Shown piece by piece: positions 4,289 to 57,828 of a DNA stretch of 64,000 nt. The DNA is from Candidatus Parcubacteria bacterium (lineage in GTDB: Bacteria > Patescibacteriota > Microgenomatia > UBA12405). The DNA lies in NCBI GenBank assembly GCA_023396915.1, contig JAEWUV010000002.1, forward strand, positions 3,171 through 67,170, read 5' to 3'. The stretch's first letter is position 1. Every line of letters begins with the position of its first letter. The position numbers and the translations under genes were made by a program. Below the pieces are notes generated by a model. The model saw only the letters and a list, made by a program, of their open reading frames with translations. It was not told the origin of the DNA and did not search any database.

Positions 4289-5239
4289 ATGGCAGTGAAA
4301 TTTGGACCAAGTGATTTACTAAGAAACGAACATTTTTTAGTGTTGAAAAAAGAAAGTAGAAAAACCAGTAAAGGGGATGTTTACTATCAACTACAATTAT
4401 CAAACAAAGACGGAATAATTGAGGCAAAAATTTGGAATAATAATATTCCAATGTGTAATTTGGAGCAAGGTAAAGTAATTGAGCTTGACGGAAAAACCCA
4501 AGAATACAACGGAAATATCAGTATAATTATTGACAGTTGTCGGATAGTAAATAATGAAGAAGTGATAGATTATTCCCCTATTACCAGGACGATGGTTTTT
4601 GATATCGAAACAATAGGGAAAAAGTTTGAAGAATTAGACGAAGTGGAACAAGATTATTTATTAAATAATCTGGAAAGAAATACCGAAGACAAAGAAGAGG
4701 CTAAAAAGAAAACTGGATTGTATTCAATTTTTGGAAAAGTGTGTGCCATTGGTGCTTATAATCCGGGTTCTGAAAAAGGGATGGTATTGCTTTTGGGGGA
4801 AAAAGAATTGAAACCGGAAAAAGAAAATTATACTTACAAAATCTTTGAAAACGAAAAAGATTTATTAATTGAATTTTGGAAAATTGCCAAAGAGTATGAG
4901 TTGTTTGTTACCTATAATGGTGATAATTTTGATTTTCCCTATTTAATAATCAGATCAGGAATTAATCGGGTAAAAGTTCCTTTTGAAGTGAAAAGATGGG
5001 GGTCGGAAAAATTTATTGATTTGTTTAATTTAATTAAGCAAAGTCATGGGTTTAAACTAGAAATGGTTTGTAAGGCGTTTGGAATTGAAAACCCAAAAGA
5101 AGAAGGGGTTCACGGAGGAGATGTAAATGAATTGTTTTACAATAAAGATTTTCAAAAAATTGCTGATTATGTGGCTAGAGATGCTTATTCAACGGCTCAA
5201 TTATATTTGGTATGGAAGGAATATATGAGCGGAAACTAA
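4289..5239 (+). CDS. OB-fold domain fused to a PolB-type DEDDy 3'-5' exonuclease (RNase H-like)
   Basis: N-terminal OB-like region (VYYQLQLSNKDGIIEAKIWNNN...). Exo I VFDIETIG, Exo II YNGDNFDFPYL, Exo III YVARDAYSTAQLY. TATAAT ends 6 nt before the ATG. Confidence 0.6.
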   Translation: MAVKFGPSDLLRNEHFLVLKKESRKTSKGDVYYQLQLSNKDGIIEAKIWNNNIPMCNLEQGKVIELDGKTQEYNGNISIIIDSCRIVNNEEVIDYSPITRTMVFDIETIGKKFEELDEVEQDYLLNNLERNTEDKEEAKKKTGLYSIFGKVCAIGAYNPGSEKGMVLLLGEKELKPEKENYTYKIFENEKDLLIEFWKIAKEYELFVTYNGDNFDFPYLIIRSGINRVKVPFEVKRWGSEKFIDLFNLIKQSHGFKLEMVCKAFGIENPKEEGVHGGDVNELFYNKDFQKIADYVARDAYSTAQLYLVWKEYMSGN

Positions 5240-37921: not shown

Positions 37922-38788
37922 TTAGAGAGATGTGGATGGAGTCACTGAAGAAGTGGCTGATTTTGTTGGAGTAATAGTAGTTTTTTTTGGTGAAATTGTT
38001 GCTGATTTTGTAGAAGGAGCAGTAACAATGGTTGGAGTTAAAGAACAAGCCATTTCGGTACAGGCAATAACGCCGGCTGATTGACAACTACAAGTGTTAC
38101 AACCGTCAGCAGATTTAAATGACTCCCCTATCTGATAAGTTTCTCCATTAAGTTCACAGACTTCCTGAGTAACAGCAGGAACACTGGTTGGGGTTACAGA
38201 GGAAGAATTTTGGGTTGATGGTTGATAGAAAAAGAGAAAATAAACCCAAAGACCGGCGACAATAAAAAATATAACCAAAGAAAGAATAAAAATATTTTTT
38301 AGACTATTTGGTTTTTTAGGTGGAGTGGTTGTTGAATCATCGGCTAAAATTTTGTCAATTTGAGCTTTGACTTCTTCTGGGCTTTTTGGGGATTCTTCTG
38401 GAGTATCAAGATTTTCCTTAGGTGGATTATAAACAGGTGGCAACTCATGTTTTTCGACGTCTGGTTGAACATCGGTTTTGGGTAATTCTTCGTTGGCTAT
38501 TCCTGGTTTATTTTCCGGAATGTCAGATGGGATTGATTGAACTTTATCCGGGGCTTCTAGTTGAGGGGAATTTATATCTTTTAATTTTATCTGTTCTTTT
38601 GGTGTAGTTTTGGATGAGATTTCTTTTAATTCGGCAGTTAGTTCCGACTCAGTGGTTACTTCTTTTGGAATTTCTTGAACTTCTATGTCTTCCGCTTTGA
38701 TTGAAGCAGCGGCTTGATCAAGAATTTTTTGGTAATCTTCACTATTGGCGTTATCGTTGGGTTGGTTTAGATTTTTATCATCATTCAT
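37922..38788 (-). CDS. Single-pass membrane protein with an acidic Pro/Glu-rich cytoplasmic N-region and a small Cys6 ectodomain resembling a VWC/chordin-type module
   Basis: TM IFILSLVIFFIVAGLWVYFLFFY. Ectodomain CELNGETYQIGESFKSADGCNTCSCQSAGVIACTEMAC. Confidence 0.5.
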   Translation of the reverse strand: MNDDKNLNQPNDNANSEDYQKILDQAAASIKAEDIEVQEIPKEVTTESELTAELKEISSKTTPKEQIKLKDINSPQLEAPDKVQSIPSDIPENKPGIANEELPKTDVQPDVEKHELPPVYNPPKENLDTPEESPKSPEEVKAQIDKILADDSTTTPPKKPNSLKNIFILSLVIFFIVAGLWVYFLFFYQPSTQNSSSVTPTSVPAVTQEVCELNGETYQIGESFKSADGCNTCSCQSAGVIACTEMACSLTPTIVTAPSTKSATISPKKTTITPTKSATSSVTPSTSL

Positions 38789-52139: not shown

Positions 52140-52394
52140 TTGGTACAATACCAGCCTATGAGTGAAAGATTGTGCCCTGATTGCCAACAGCAAGGTAATT
52201 GTTTATTTAGAGAATATACCGATATAGTGGTATTGGAATTAATAACCAAAGGAGTTACTGGTTTAGATGAATCAAGAATGGCAGCTTTAGAGGTTCATCA
52301 AAAAATTGCGGAAGAAAGAAAAAGAGCCAGAGAAAGAATGTGTCCACATTTAAATAATATTGATCCTGATTATCCGGGAAAAGAGCTACTCTAA
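52140..52394 (+). CDS. Hypothetical small Cys-containing protein
   Basis: 84-codon ORF between the divergent proS and convergent rnj; CPDCQQQGNC...MCPH. No homology recognised. Confidence 0.3.
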   Translation: MVQYQPMSERLCPDCQQQGNCLFREYTDIVVLELITKGVTGLDESRMAALEVHQKIAEERKRARERMCPHLNNIDPDYPGKELL

Positions 52395-54157
52395 ACTTCA
52401 ATCACCAAAGGCAAGACCATGGGTTGGCGGCCGGTTTTTTGATAGATAATTTCTTCGATATGAGCCTGGACTTCTTCGCGAATAAAATCAAAATTAGCCG
52501 GAACACTGGTAACCTGTTTAAATTTATTACTAATTTCTTGTTTAAGATAATTAATTAAATCGGTGTTTTCTTTCATAAAAACAAAACCACGACTTAAGAT
52601 AACCGGATCTTTTTCCATTTGACCAGTTTCTCTATTTACTAGCAAAACTACCGAAAACATACCATCTTCAGCTAAGGCTTTACGGTCGCGTAAAACAGTA
52701 GCGCCAACATCCCCTATTCCAAATCCATCAATCAAGACTTTTCTGATGGGAATATGAAAATTGGTATCAAAAGTAGACCCATGAAAAGTAACCGAGGCAT
52801 CAAAGTCAGGCAAAATTACCTGGTCTTCGGTATAGCCAATTTTTCTGGCCATTTCCTGATATTTTTTGAGATGTCTGAAATTACCTCCAATAGGTAAAAG
52901 ATATTTAGGCTTTACCAAACTAATTAACAAAGCATGTTCTTTTTGATAACCATGACCGGAAACATGAAGCTCTTCTTTTTCACCGTAGACAACCTCAGCC
53001 CCCATTTTGGAAAGAATATCAATCATAGAGTAAATATTACTGGTGGTACCGGGAATATAATCTGGTGAGGAAAAAATGACTTTATCGCCAGATTTTATCT
53101 TGATTCGGTGTTTTCCCATGATCATTTTACTTAAAGCCGAATCTGGTTGTCCAGCAAAACCGGCAACTAAAAAGATTAGTTTATTTTCGGGGAAATTTTT
53201 GGTTCTTTCAACAGGGATGATATCACCATCATTGAGTTTAAGATAATTAAGCTCTTTGGCAATGGCAATGGCTTTGTCAACAGAGAAACCGACAATAACA
53301 ATTTTTCGACCAACACTTTTGGCATATTCAATGGCTTGGGACCAACGAATGATATTACTAGAGATAGACGTTACAAAAACTCTGCCTTTGGCAGAAGTAA
53401 TTTCATATTTAAAGTTTTCAGCGATAGAACTTTCAGAAGGTGAATAACCTTCATGGTCAGACCCCAAAGCGTCGGACATTAAAGCGACTACATTTCCTTT
53501 TTCACCGATTCTGGCAATATGAGCTAAGTCAGGACTTTTGCCATCAAGGGGGAAAAGATCAAATTTAAAATCAGACCCGTGGTAAAAAACACCAACTGGG
53601 GTGTTAATGGCAAAATGGTAAGTATCAGGAATTGAATGGGTAACCCTGACAGGATCAACAGCAAAGACACCTTTGGTAATTTGAACGCTGTCCTCATAGA
53701 CATTTAAATTAGCCCGGATATTAACTTCAGCAAGGCGGGATTCAATAAAGGCGGCGGCTAATTTTGGGGCAAAAATGGGAATATTTTTACCTAAAATTGG
53801 CAAAATGAAACGGACAGCACCAATGTGATCTTCGTGACCGTGAGTAATAAAAATACCTAAAATGCGGTCTTTTTTATCTTCCAAATATTGCGTATCAGGA
53901 ATCTGAAGATCAACTCCAAAAGTGTCTTCTTCGGGGAAACCGACACCACAGTCAACAATAATTATTTGACTTTTGTTAACATCACCGTTGGGGATAAACT
54001 CGTAAACGAACATATTTTGGGTAACATCACCAAATCCGCCCAACGAGCTGATTCGGAGTGAATCTTGGTTAGACTTAAATTCTCTAACCTGATTTGGAGT
54101 ATTTTTAAAATAATCCATATTTTTAGTTTTAATATTTTTTGATTGTGTATTTATCAT
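52391..54157 (-). CDS. rnj: Ribonuclease J (metallo-beta-lactamase/beta-CASP)
   Basis: 588 aa; HGHEDHIG motif. Confidence 0.93.
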   Translation of the reverse strand: MINTQSKNIKTKNMDYFKNTPNQVREFKSNQDSLRISSLGGFGDVTQNMFVYEFIPNGDVNKSQIIIVDCGVGFPEEDTFGVDLQIPDTQYLEDKKDRILGIFITHGHEDHIGAVRFILPILGKNIPIFAPKLAAAFIESRLAEVNIRANLNVYEDSVQITKGVFAVDPVRVTHSIPDTYHFAINTPVGVFYHGSDFKFDLFPLDGKSPDLAHIARIGEKGNVVALMSDALGSDHEGYSPSESSIAENFKYEITSAKGRVFVTSISSNIIRWSQAIEYAKSVGRKIVIVGFSVDKAIAIAKELNYLKLNDGDIIPVERTKNFPENKLIFLVAGFAGQPDSALSKMIMGKHRIKIKSGDKVIFSSPDYIPGTTSNIYSMIDILSKMGAEVVYGEKEELHVSGHGYQKEHALLISLVKPKYLLPIGGNFRHLKKYQEMARKIGYTEDQVILPDFDASVTFHGSTFDTNFHIPIRKVLIDGFGIGDVGATVLRDRKALAEDGMFSVVLLVNRETGQMEKDPVILSRGFVFMKENTDLINYLKQEISNKFKQVTSVPANFDFIREEVQAHIEEIIYQKTGRQPMVLPLVIEV

Positions 54158-54218
54158 ATAAATTTAACTGATTAATTAATGAAATAATGTTTTAACTTTT
54201 CTAATTTTGGCAATATGT

Positions 54219-55280
54219 TTACCATTGAGGCAAAAAAGTCTTGATATTGGAATTATCTAAAACCAATTGTTTAACTTTACCCTCAAAAATCAATTTGGCA
54301 GCTTTACGGCAAAGACCTTCAATATTTCTTTGTAAGGTTCTAACCCCGGCATCAAACCCCAACGGGCGAACGATTTGACTCCAGATTGAAGGATCAATTT
54401 TAAGTTCCTCGGGTTTGAGTCCAGCTTGTTTGATAGCTTTGGGTAAGACATAGTCGCGACCAATAATAATTTTTTCTTCGTCGTTATAAGACGGCATTTG
54501 AATCACCTCGAGACGATCCATAACAGCGGTAGCAATACGGGTAGTATTGTTACAGGTGGCACAAAAAAGAGCCCGGGAAAGATCGACCGGATAATCAATA
54601 TAGTGATCAGAAAAACGGTTATTCTGTTCAGGGTCAAGTAATTCAACTAGGACACCCATAATAGTGTTAAGGGCGTTATCGGCAACTCTGTCAATTTCAT
54701 CAAGAAGAATTACCGGATTTCTGCTTTTAGCATTAATTAATCCTTTGATAACCTGACCTGGCTCAGCTTCGGGATGAAGTCTGGATTGGCCACGAAGATA
54801 AAGTGGATCACCTAAACCACCAAAAGGAATACGAATAAGTTCTCGACCTAAAACATTAGCAATAGATTTGGCAATGGTAGTCTTACCGGTACCGACCAAG
54901 CCGACGAATAATAAGACTGGAGCTTTTATAGGTTGATCTGGGTTACGATTTTCCTGTAAAGCTAACACAGAAATATATTCCAATAAACGCTCTTTAACTT
55001 CATCCAAACCATAATGTTCTGCATTTAACTTCTCTTTGGCAAACTGAAGATCAAGAATATCTTTGGTTTCTTTAATCCAAGGAATTTCAATTAAATAATT
55101 AATATATTTGGTGGCATTTTGATAGTTTTGCCAGAAGGTTTCCTCATTTTGAGAATTAATTGTAAGTTGGGCAAAAAGCTCCTCAAGATTGGCAATTAAA
55201 TCAGGCGGTAATTTAACCGATTCAATTTTTTTTCTCAGGTTTTCAATCGCCTGTTTGGTAGTCAAAACACTAGAATCCAT
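54219..55280 (-). CDS. Lon-type AAA+ ATPase module without the LON N-domain and without the protease domain
   Basis: LPW-helical lead-in IEIPWIKETKDILDL...HYGLDEVKERLLEYISV. Walker A GLVGTGKTT, Walker B ILLDEIDR, sensor LDPEQNNRFSDHY. Ends at LCRKAAKLIFEGK...FLPQW, where the Lon protease domain would begin. Confidence 0.75.
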   Translation of the reverse strand: MDSSVLTTKQAIENLRKKIESVKLPPDLIANLEELFAQLTINSQNEETFWQNYQNATKYINYLIEIPWIKETKDILDLQFAKEKLNAEHYGLDEVKERLLEYISVLALQENRNPDQPIKAPVLLFVGLVGTGKTTIAKSIANVLGRELIRIPFGGLGDPLYLRGQSRLHPEAEPGQVIKGLINAKSRNPVILLDEIDRVADNALNTIMGVLVELLDPEQNNRFSDHYIDYPVDLSRALFCATCNNTTRIATAVMDRLEVIQMPSYNDEEKIIIGRDYVLPKAIKQAGLKPEELKIDPSIWSQIVRPLGFDAGVRTLQRNIEGLCRKAAKLIFEGKVKQLVLDNSNIKTFLPQW

Positions 55281-55329
55281 ATAAAAAGTATAGTCTATTT
55301 ATCACAATTTAGAAGTGTAAGAACGGTTC

Positions 55330-57528
55330 TTATCGTCTGGGACGGGGTGAGCGGCCACCAATACGAGAATCAAATTTACCAAATTGTTGTTGAGGACGGG
55401 GATTGAAAGCAGCCCTGTTACTGTCCTGACGAGGTTGTCCTGGATGAGCAGCTTTAAATTCCGGAGCACTTAATTTAATTTGATGATTATCATTGAAACC
55501 AGCAATTTTAACTTTTAGTTTGTCCCCTTCTTTGATGATGCTTGAGGGATCAGATAAAAATCCACCGGTCATTTCGGAAACATGAAGTAAAGCTTCGCGA
55601 CCTGGTAAAAATTCAATAAAGGCACCAAAGTTTTCAACTCGGGTAACAATACCATCATATTCCTCACCAACTTCAACTTCTTTAATCATTGATTCGATTT
55701 CATAAGCGGCGTCATCAATGGCTTTTTGATCCTGGGCTGAAATGGAAGCATTACCAAAATCATCAATATCAATTTGAACTTGATATTTATCCATTAAAGC
55801 TTTGACAGTTTTACCACCACTACCAATAACTTCACCAATTTTATCTTCTGGAAGTCGGACTAATTTTATTTTTGGAGCAAATTGTGAAAGTTGGGACCGT
55901 GGGGCAGTTAAAACTGATTCCATTTTGTCCAAAATTTGAAAACGAGCTTTGGTGGAAGCAACGAAAGTATCACGAATCATCTGAAGAGTTAAACCTTCAC
56001 GTTTGATATCAAGTTGAATAGCGGTGATGCCATTTCTGGTTCCGGTGATTTTGAAATCCATATCACCAAAATGATCTTCGATACCGGCAATATCAGTTAA
56101 TAAAATATATTTATCGTCAGTTGGAGCCATAAGACCAATAGAAATTCCGGCAACTTTATCCTTTATAGGTACACCAGCATCCATTAAAGACATGGTGGAA
56201 CCACAAGTTGAAGCCATAGAAGAAGACCCATTTTGAGATAAAACTTCGGAAGTTAAAATAATGGTGTAGGGAAACTCTTCTTCGTTAGGGATAACAGGGA
56301 CTAAAGCTTTTTCAGCCAAAGCACCGTGGCCAATTTCACGACGACCTGGTCGGCCAGTTTTACCAGTTTGACCAGTGGAAAAAGGCATAGCAGAGTAATA
56401 GTGAATATAACGTTTGGTTGTTTCACCGTTAGAATCCTGTAAATATTGTTTTTCTGATAAGGGGGCTAAAGTAGTAACGGTAATAGCTTGGGTCAAACCT
56501 CTTTCAAAAAGAGCCGAACCGTGGGTCATAGGTAAAACACCGGCTTCAACATTAAGAGGGCGGATTTCGTCTAAAGCTCGTTTGTCATAACGTTTACCTG
56601 CAACAGTTTGCTGTCTGACATATTCTTTAAGGACTTCATCGACAGCGGCGACTAAATGATTAGCAGAAACTTCTTCGGATTCAATTTTTTCTGCATAAAT
56701 TTCTTTGACTTTGTCAATAATTTTGTCTTGGCCAACCATATGAGCACCATCGACACCTTCTTCAAAAAATTTCTTAACATCGTCTTTGATTTTTGATTCG
56801 ACTTCTTTGATTAAATCTTTTGAAGGACCGGCTGGTTCAAAGCTAATTTTCTTTTTCCCGCATTTTTTGGCAAATTCATCAATTTGTTTGTTGACTTCAT
56901 CACCAGTAGTTTTGGCTAATTCGATAGCCTGAAGCATGAGTTCGTTTTCGACAATTTTTCCATCAGCTTCAATCATGTTGACACCTTTTGGACCAGTACA
57001 AACCAAAAGATCAAATTTTGATCTTTGTAATTCTTCTAAGTCAGGATTGACAACCAATTGATCATTGATATAACCAACACGAACGGCTGAAACCGGACCA
57101 CGGAAAGGGATATCCGAAATACTTAGTGCAGCAGCAGCAGCAGTGAAAGCCGGAATAACTACATCGTGCTTTTTGTCATTACTTAAAACAGTAGTAATGA
57201 TCTGCACTTCATTTAAAAATCCATTTGGGAATAAAGGTCGAAGAGATCGGTCAATAATACGACCACAAAGAACAGCCTCGTCTGAAGGACCACCATCACG
57301 TTTAAGCCATTTACCACCTTTAACTAATCCTCCGGCGTAGAGTTTGTCAACAAATTCAACCGAAAGAGGGAAATAATCTTTGGATTCATCCAATTTTCCC
57401 ATTAAAACAGTGGCTAAAACAACAGTGTTGCCAAATTGAGCGACAACTGAAGCATTGGTTTGAGGGGCAAGTTTACCAGTAGTTAAACTGACGTGTTTAT
57501 CGCCCACGAGTATATCTTGTGTATGCAT
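55330..57528 (-). CDS. pnp: Polyribonucleotide nucleotidyltransferase (PNPase)
   Basis: 732 aa; two RNase PH domains; KH and S1 at the C-terminus. Confidence 0.95.
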   Translation of the reverse strand: MHTQDILVGDKHVSLTTGKLAPQTNASVVAQFGNTVVLATVLMGKLDESKDYFPLSVEFVDKLYAGGLVKGGKWLKRDGGPSDEAVLCGRIIDRSLRPLFPNGFLNEVQIITTVLSNDKKHDVVIPAFTAAAAALSISDIPFRGPVSAVRVGYINDQLVVNPDLEELQRSKFDLLVCTGPKGVNMIEADGKIVENELMLQAIELAKTTGDEVNKQIDEFAKKCGKKKISFEPAGPSKDLIKEVESKIKDDVKKFFEEGVDGAHMVGQDKIIDKVKEIYAEKIESEEVSANHLVAAVDEVLKEYVRQQTVAGKRYDKRALDEIRPLNVEAGVLPMTHGSALFERGLTQAITVTTLAPLSEKQYLQDSNGETTKRYIHYYSAMPFSTGQTGKTGRPGRREIGHGALAEKALVPVIPNEEEFPYTIILTSEVLSQNGSSSMASTCGSTMSLMDAGVPIKDKVAGISIGLMAPTDDKYILLTDIAGIEDHFGDMDFKITGTRNGITAIQLDIKREGLTLQMIRDTFVASTKARFQILDKMESVLTAPRSQLSQFAPKIKLVRLPEDKIGEVIGSGGKTVKALMDKYQVQIDIDDFGNASISAQDQKAIDDAAYEIESMIKEVEVGEEYDGIVTRVENFGAFIEFLPGREALLHVSEMTGGFLSDPSSIIKEGDKLKVKIAGFNDNHQIKLSAPEFKAAHPGQPRQDSNRAAFNPRPQQQFGKFDSRIGGRSPRPRR

Positions 57529-57558: not shown

Positions 57559-57828
57559 TTACTTCTTCAATCCGAGAGCCTTGATGATAGCTGAATAACG
57601 TTCTGGATTGTGAATAGAAAGATAACGGAGTAAACGACGACGCTTGGCAATCTTGGAAAGAATTCCGCGCTTTGCCGGAGAATCATGTTTATTCTCGGTT
57701 AAATGACCTTGGAGTTTTTCAACTTCTTTGGTAAGAATTGCAATTTGAATTTCTGGAGAACCAGTGTCACCTTTAGCCTGAGCGTAAGTAGTAATTATCT
57801 CTTGTTTTTCTTCTTTGGTTAATGCCAT
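57559..57828 (-). CDS. rpsO: 30S ribosomal protein S15
   Basis: 89 aa; GDTGSPEIQIAILT. Confidence 0.95.
   Translation of the reverse strand: MALTKEEKQEIITTYAQAKGDTGSPEIQIAILTKEVEKLQGHLTENKHDSPAKRGILSKIAKRRRLLRYLSIHNPERYSAIIKALGLKK

Follow-up and report, generated by a model that had tools for sequence, protein, structure and literature searches.

Lon is the archetype of the single-chain ATPase-plus-protease, and the locus studied here raises the question of what is left of it, and what that remnant may do, when a gene encodes only its ATPase module. The locus belongs to a 64,000-nucleotide stretch of a Candidatus Parcubacteria bacterium (contig JAEWUV010000002.1), referred to below as the window. 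Gene X, on the minus strand at positions 54219 to 55280, had been read from the sequence alone as a Lon AAA+ core lacking both the N-terminal substrate-recognition domain and the protease domain. This original prediction proposed a Lon-derived unfoldase or chaperone, a DNA-binding ATPase or one half of a split Lon. Our analysis upheld the architecture by several routes, and the identity of X as a Lon-derived stand-alone ATPase is near certain. With regard to its function, we favor, with a probability of about 0.5, a ring-forming, non-proteolytic Lon-derived ATPase acting as a chaperone-like remodeler, rather than a canonical unfoldase or part of a split Lon; the mechanistic part of this reading is much less certain than the identity.

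Architecture and ATPase site

The gene starts with ATG, ends with a TAA stop at 54219-54221 and carries the following features.

54219 to 55280, minus strand: gene X, stand-alone Lon-type AAA+ ATPase (353 aa), corresponding to E. coli Lon residues 252-579
54951 to 55280, minus strand: helical pre-AAA region (residues 1-110), made of the C-terminal part of the LonA long helix and a helical bundle
54498 to 54914, minus strand: AAA+ alpha/beta core (residues 123-261; Pfam PF00004, E 3e-17)
54876 to 54902, minus strand: Walker A, GLVGTGKTT (residues 127-135), read from the sequence
54690 to 54710, minus strand: Walker B, ILLDEID (residues 191-197, with D194 and E195), invariant in the family
54600 to 54638, minus strand: pre-sensor-1 hairpin region, LDPEQNNRFSDHY (residues 215-227), from the alignment with LonA
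54549 to 54551, minus strand: sensor-1 Asn244, in ATCNN (E. coli N473)
54513 to 54515, minus strand: arginine finger Arg256 (E. coli R484)
54270 to 54431, minus strand: Lon lid (alpha) domain (residues 284-337; PF22667, E 6e-12), which includes sensor-2
54339 to 54341, minus strand: sensor-2 Arg314 (E. coli R542)
54219 to 54236, minus strand: C-terminal end, FLPQW, and stop, at the start of the LonA linker to the protease domain

Protein X comprises only three parts of LonA: helical pre-AAA region, AAA+ core and lid. A Pfam scan of the protein returned only AAA and Lon_lid, with no match to Lon_C (PF05362) or LON_substr_bdg. The NCBIfam model TIGR00763 ("lon", endopeptidase La) aligned through profile positions 251-570 of 795, with 309.9 bits, below its cut-off of 608.05, and PRK10787 scored 233 against a cut-off of 891. 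In a phmmer search of the PDB, residues 12-350 matched B. subtilis Lon (3m6a, E 2e-71), and X was also aligned to LonA residues ~246-579. Along its whole 353 aa, X showed 36 to 40% identity to LonA AAA+ modules, collinear with them and without an insertion between Walker A and Walker B. The AlphaFold 2 (AF2) model (predicted local distance difference test score, 75) could be superimposed on LonA AAA+ chains with template modeling (TM) scores of 0.70 to 0.78 over 340 to 352 columns; for the E. coli Lon fragment 235-584 (6N2I), Foldseek gave TM values of 0.72/0.75 over 348 columns.

As had been proposed, the protein begins within the helical region that precedes the ATPase, being collinear with E. 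coli Lon from residue ~252. Residues 1-110, aligned with B. subtilis Lon 10-100 (3m6a) and E. coli Lon 252-350, contain the conserved P67-W68 and H89-Y-G motifs, and the model places helices at 8-20, 26-42, 46-64, 78-88 and 93-108. At the other end, X stops at the junction of lid and linker, the point at which a Ser-Lys protease domain should begin. The FLPQW end is near-invariant in the close family, and distant members have other short hydrophobic or aromatic ends.

The missing domains were not found elsewhere in the window either. A tblastn search with E. coli Lon matched the window only through residues 252-579, and neither the N part (1-250) nor the P part (581-784) found anything in any frame of the 64 kb. 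Pfam scans of 20 other open reading frames (ORFs) of the window detected no ATP-dependent protease, only a sortase. Gene X is separated by 49 nt from the upstream stop codon of pnp (55281-55329) and by 61 nt from the downstream start of the RNase J gene (54158-54218), so neither an N domain nor an S16 protease domain would fit in; the original observation that the 61 nt downstream encode no protease domain was thus correct.

The nucleotide-binding site of the X family is complete, including the trans-acting arginine finger. The residues K362, D423, E424, N473, R484 and R542 (E. coli numbering) were invariant in 21/21 family representatives and in 65/65 LonA sequences, in agreement with the claim that Walker A, Walker B, sensor-2 and the arginine residues are intact. 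Within Walker A, K133 is invariant, and the position equivalent to Pro358 is unconstrained across the family. One assignment had to be corrected: LDPEQNNRFSDHY had been taken for sensor-1, and it is the pre-sensor-1 hairpin, sensor-1 being N244. This hairpin region is typical of Lon/HslU/ClpX-type ATPases, and its segment (LDPEQN..F.DHY in Lon) is invariant in the X family. An arginine finger acts on the ATP of the neighboring subunit, and its conservation implies, from general knowledge of AAA+ proteins, an oligomeric ring ATPase. Judging by these motifs, X would form a ring and hydrolyze ATP.

Conservation, distribution and relatives

A search of 5.8 billion proteins recovered more than 120 homologs with 72 to 100% identity to X, all of them 352 to 353 aa long, with Candidatus Shapirobacteria, Candidatus Woesebacteria and Patescibacteria group among the named sources. 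A scaffold of 906,714 bp encodes a protein identical to X, and the neighboring genes are the same there. All 12 orthologous genes tested in GTDB genomes were collinear, ended at the same stop codon and had ratios of nonsynonymous to synonymous substitution rates (dN/dS) of 0.05 to 0.18, values that are approximate because synonymous sites are near saturation. The X family is under strong purifying selection.

A gene fragment, pseudogene, or assembly or frameshift artefact of a full-length lon is ruled out by the conserved length, the stop position and the dN/dS values, and we give this explanation practically no weight. All that speaks for it is the unusual architecture itself. Against it stand the same architecture with an identical stop in hundreds of independent assemblies, the low dN/dS and the intact, tightly packed flanking genes. 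A frameshift or sequencing error, one of the two ways in which the original prediction was to fall, can therefore be dismissed on the shared length and stop of the more than 120 homologs and 12/12 orthologs. Source annotations call X "ATP-dependent Lon protease" or "AAA family ATPase"; the former name is wrong, since the protein has no protease domain.

In the species genomes of GTDB, family-specific peptide patterns gave at least 548 confirmed matches, and the best 80 of them all came from Microgenomates-type bins of the candidate phyla radiation (CPR). Many of these clearly Microgenomates/CPR contigs (L010, L011, L013, L015, L045 and others) bear titles such as "uncultured Gammaproteobacteria bacterium" or "Candidatus Methanoperedens sp."; gene content and synteny show that they are CPR, and the titles are placeholder or mis-binned labels. 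A scan of JGI metagenomes with an alignment of a distant subclade, ~40% identical to X, added 74 family loci. The family belongs to the CPR/Patescibacteria, namely, the Microgenomates (Shapiro-, Woese-, Ames- and Gottesmanbacteria) and also the Dojkabacteria.

An exhaustive search with HMMER through 1.84 billion cluster representatives yielded three classes: short relatives of 343 to 669 aa, which contain only AAA and Lon_lid; canonical LonA proteins of ~770 to 850 aa; and multi-module proteins. Some family members (P0138, P0130, P0127 and P0147) carry long low-complexity, Q/P/T-rich N-terminal extensions of 100 to 320 aa where LonA has its N domain, and no Pfam domain was found in these extensions. 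In a neighbor-joining (NJ) tree of 182 Lon AAA+ modules, the proteins without N and P domains formed one clade, apart from canonical LonA. Because the tree is distance-based and carries no support values, the monophyly of the protease-less proteins is indicated rather than proven. The grouping nevertheless speaks against the second foreseen refutation, in which X would be simply a paralogous fragment that occurs sporadically. As named sources of the nearest full-length Lons, the search of representatives gave Veillonellaceae and Spirochaetota.

Many representatives of the multi-module class, outside the window, have two to three consecutive Lon AAA+ modules (AAA plus Lon_lid each) followed by one S16 domain, with no LonA N domain (P0121-P0125, P0128, P0129, P0131, P0133-P0136, P0139 and others). 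Their sources include Candidatus Dependentiae (P0121) and Candidatus Babeliales (P0134, which has N-terminal ankyrin repeats). Such a stacked-ATPase Lon is unusual, and we know of no description of one.

Pore loops, surface charge and gene neighborhood

The substrate-contacting pore is where X departs from LonA, a difference that the original prediction had overlooked.

54756 to 54794, minus strand: pore-loop-1 hairpin, RGQSRLHPEAEPG (residues 163-175), with an acidic PEAEPG segment

In LonA, the motif RGHRRTY[IV]G[AS]MPG presents a tyrosine followed by an aliphatic residue; X has His169-Pro170 at these positions. The Tyr398 position was invariant in 65/65 LonA representatives, and over 140 family loci it was occupied by H (41), Y (38), F (17), R (13), S (9), Q (8) and N (7), followed mostly by Pro and not by Ile/Val. 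Pore loop 1 of the family reads S-[RK]-x-x-P-[DE]-A-E-P-G, with the acidic motif conserved, and the aromatic residue of LonA pore loop 2 is replaced by Ala or Leu. We also scanned for positions with at least 90% conservation among LonA proteins and no constraint in the X family. Only ten positions passed; the pore-loop-1 hairpin has five of them (D387, E388, H394, T397 and Y398), and pore loop 2 has one (G434). In addition, R395, invariant in LonA, has switched to Ser. In M. taiwanensis LonA, the corresponding Tyr397 touches the substrate, as does Trp431 of pore loop 2, and degradation depends on both residues (PMC8503904). By these alignments, the LonA pore-loop signature is both relaxed and rewritten in the X family.

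The charge of the module also differs. The isoelectric point (pI) is 5.67 for X, with a family median of 5.5 (range, 5.1 to 6.9), versus 9.2 for E. coli Lon 252-579. The basic patch at the positions of E. coli R306/K308/K310/K311, which we take to be the DNA-binding site of E. coli Lon although a literature search did not confirm it, is absent from the X family.

Gene X is part of a string of genes on one strand.

57559 to 57828, minus strand: rpsO, ribosomal protein S15, at the head of the rpsO-pnp-X-rnj string
55330 to 57528, minus strand: pnp, PNPase (732 aa), directly upstream of X with a 49-nt gap
52391 to 54157, minus strand: rnj, RNase J (588 aa), directly downstream of X with a 61-nt gap

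No terminator-like hairpin was found in either the pnp-X or the X-rnj gap of the window, and the arrangement is consistent with co-transcription of pnp, X and rnj. The PNPase C-terminus (55330-55450, minus strand), directly upstream of the acidic X gene, is a basic tail rich in Arg, Pro, Gly and Gln that ends in HPGQPRQDSNRAAFNPRPQQQFGKFDSRIGGRSPRPRR.

We examined synteny in the 80 best-scoring loci of each scan (GTDB and JGI metagenomes), which are thus not a random sample. The usual gene order is rpsO-pnp-X-(udg)-rnj-ftsK. Among the 80 GTDB loci, the gene immediately preceding X on its strand was pnp in 63 of the 67 cases that could be assessed. Downstream, rnj was present in 60/62; a family-4-like uracil-DNA glycosylase (UDG) gene separated X and rnj in 27 of these 60, and ftsK was usually next. 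For the 74 metagenome loci of the ~40%-identical subclade, the values were 32/50 for pnp and 34/52 for rnj, with UDG intervening in 18 of the 34. Overall, X was followed by UDG in 35/80 GTDB and 19/52 metagenome loci, as well as in L007 and L092. The UDG gene (PF03167, ~190 to 215 aa; e.g., L019:11056-11631) also follows X in distant relatives and is absent from the window. In P0207, the most distant member checked (37% identity), X is followed by rnj.

Other neighborhoods were also found. In ten metagenome loci of one subclade (L115, L118, L120, L121, L136, L147, L150, L151, L154 and L163), the X gene stands head-to-head with groES-groEL, and its product has Ser or Gln where LonA has the pore-loop tyrosine. 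Other family members adjoin thyX/dcd or M23 and M16 peptidases. In the wider region around X, there are genes for RecA, FtsK and nucleases.

With flanks of 6 to 10 kb scanned, none of the 154 family loci had an S16 or Lon-N domain. The metagenome scan also picked up six loci of canonical LonA, which serve as a positive control: every one was flagged for S16/Lon-N, which validates the domain detection. These six loci have a GC content of 60 to 68%, versus ~40% for the family loci, indicating that they are not CPR.

Three further ORFs of the window deserve mention. Between rnj and proS, an 84-aa ORF (52140-52394, plus strand) with a Cys-x2-Cys motif overlaps the rnj stop by 4 nt; the source assemblies annotate it as a gene, and Pfam returned no match. 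A 288-aa ORF (37922-38788, minus strand) matches Pacifastin_I (E 6e-9), an insect serine-protease inhibitor unexpected in a bacterium, and possibly reflects a cysteine-rich repeat. Finally, a 316-aa protein (4289-5239, plus strand) matches only the exonuclease models of family-B DNA polymerase (DNA_pol_B_exo1/exo2 and RNase_H_2) and so is a stand-alone PolB-type exonuclease.

Function and comparison with known systems

In the reading that we favor, X would assemble into a ring, hydrolyze ATP and remodel a restricted set of protein partners in a chaperone-like manner, without proteolysis. It would no longer thread polypeptides processively into a protease and would retain the protease-independent side of Lon within a minimal proteostasis network. 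Given the probable co-transcription with pnp and rnj, the RNA-decay enzymes PNPase and RNase J are candidate clients or partners of X in Microgenomates. The groESL-adjacent subclade fits a proteostasis role for the family. Of the unfoldase or chaperone originally proposed, the stand-alone Lon AAA+ module stands, and the unfoldase part is weakened by the loss of the pore-loop features, including the substrate-gripping tyrosine. Several points weigh against our reading. To our knowledge, the isolated AAA+ module of LonA is not known to hexamerize well without the protease domain, and we infer ring formation and ATPase activity of X only from the conservation of motifs. The dominant gene context (pnp, rnj, udg and ftsK) is not one of proteostasis. 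Lastly, ~40% of the family members retain Tyr or Phe at the pore-loop position and 29% have His, so that some threading activity may persist.

The same neighborhood could instead mean that X specifically assists or regulates PNPase, RNase J or both, that is, a CPR-specific degradosome ATPase remodeling the nucleases or ribonucleoprotein substrates. The co-oriented arrangement of pnp, X and rnj, separated by 49 and 61 nt with no terminator-like site, argues in this direction, as does a synteny that is strong in the GTDB loci and extends to the ~40%-identical subclade and P0207. However, the conserved block also includes unrelated housekeeping genes (UDG and ftsK), which suggests inherited block synteny rather than a functional operon. 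Moreover, other subclades adjoin groESL, thyX/dcd or M23/M16 peptidases, and X has no RNA-binding domain, is acidic (pI ~5.5) and has an acidic pore loop. We therefore regard a dedicated role in RNA decay as unlikely. A bolder proposal, that a Microgenomates/CPR Lon gave up proteolysis and had its ATPase recruited into a minimal PNPase-RNase J RNA-decay machine, is in our opinion rather improbable; if true, the AAA+ ring of X would fill the role that DEAD-box helicases have in other degradosomes, acting on nucleases or ribonucleoproteins. A nucleic-acid-binding ATPase, either a DNA or RNA motor or a DNA-bound regulator, would be in keeping with the ability of Lon from E. coli and mitochondria to bind DNA, with the recurrent UDG gene after X and with RecA, FtsK and nucleases in the wider region. 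Yet the acidic family range contrasts with the pI of 9.2 of the E. coli fragment, the basic patch is missing, the pore loops are acidic and there is no extra domain. The DNA-binding ATPase of the original prediction thus found no support, and we consider any such nucleic-acid motor very improbable.

A two-component protease, in which X docks on a separate peptidase (a stand-alone S16 or a ClpP/HslV-like one) and, in the manner of ClpX and HslU, delivers substrates to it, would fit the end of X exactly at the boundary between the AAA and protease domains. By established classification, ClpX, HslU and X are members of one AAA+ clade, and the near-invariant FLPQW C-terminus of the close family could be seen in the same light. 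As a docking tail, though, FLPQW was rejected: it extends only ~3 residues past the lid and is not conserved across subclades. Neither the 64-kb window nor the 6- to 10-kb flanks at the 154 loci contain an S16 domain, the pore-loop residues needed by every known AAA+ protease motor have lost their constraint in the X family, and the nearest full-length Lons among those recovered come from high-GC organisms outside the CPR. The split Lon is accordingly disfavored, and we hold a two-component protease to be quite doubtful. An ATPase of a defense system was also considered and rejected, given that PADLOC returned weak, generic P-loop matches (best, DolB, E 9e-11, 39.7 bits) versus 310 bits to Lon.

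That a reduced genome should lose a domain is nothing extraordinary by itself. The product here is an intact, strongly conserved family of Lon ATPases without protease and N domains, widespread in the CPR and present in hundreds of these tiny-genome bacteria, from which it seems that the Lon motor became a stand-alone ATPase. In a literature search, we found no published account of a protease-less Lon family in CPR/Patescibacteria, which is weak evidence of absence. According to a recent classification, every Lon has both ATPase and protease domains (PMC9569914), and a family devoid of the protease and N domains, with rewritten pore loops, falls outside it. The X family is a natural experiment on the Lon motor without its protease and bears on the debated chaperone side of Lon, as well as on how ultra-small CPR bacteria, with their minimal sets of genes, control the quality of their proteins and possibly of their RNA.

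Compared with LonA (E. coli, B. subtilis, M. taiwanensis and human LONP1), X has the same pre-AAA region, core, pre-sensor-1 hairpin and lid, and the nucleotide-site residues are identical. LonA has, in addition, the N-terminal substrate-recognition domain with a long coiled coil and the S16 Ser-Lys protease domain, neither of which is present in X. The two also differ in Walker A (GPPGVGKT in LonA versus GL[VQ]G[TV]GKT in the X family), in pore loop 1 (RRTY[IV]G[AS]MPG versus S[RK]xxP[DE]AEPG) and in charge, the AAA+ fragment of E. coli LonA being basic and X acidic. The engineered E. coli fragment 235-584 (6N2I) has almost the boundaries of X; it is a laboratory truncation, whereas X is the natural product of a conserved gene.

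Similar to ClpX and HslU, X is a stand-alone AAA+ protein, predicted to form a single ring, of the HslU/ClpX/Lon/RuvB clade without a fused protease, and it shows the features of this clade, namely, the AAA+ alpha/beta plus lid fold and the pre-sensor-1 hairpin. ClpX and HslU, however, have an aromatic GYVG pore loop and defined docking elements (IGF loop, C-terminal tail) and serve separate peptidases, while X has a relaxed pore and no recognizable docking element, and no partner peptidase was found nearby (6- to 10-kb flanks). The tandem-AAA Lons (P0121-P0125, P0134 and others) share with X the Lon-type AAA+ module, the lack of the LonA N domain and a close position in the AAA+ tree, but they have two to three modules and retain S16, whereas X has a single module and no S16. 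LonB (archaeal) and LonBA are characterized by a membrane-anchoring insertion in the AAA+ module and a protease domain (PMC9569914), and X has neither. In LonC (Lon-like-Ms of M. taiwanensis), too, one of the two Lon activities was given up (PMC3391209, PMC13069640, PMC9569914): its S16 protease is active and its ATPase site degenerate and inactive, and X is the opposite, a fully equipped ATPase with no protease.

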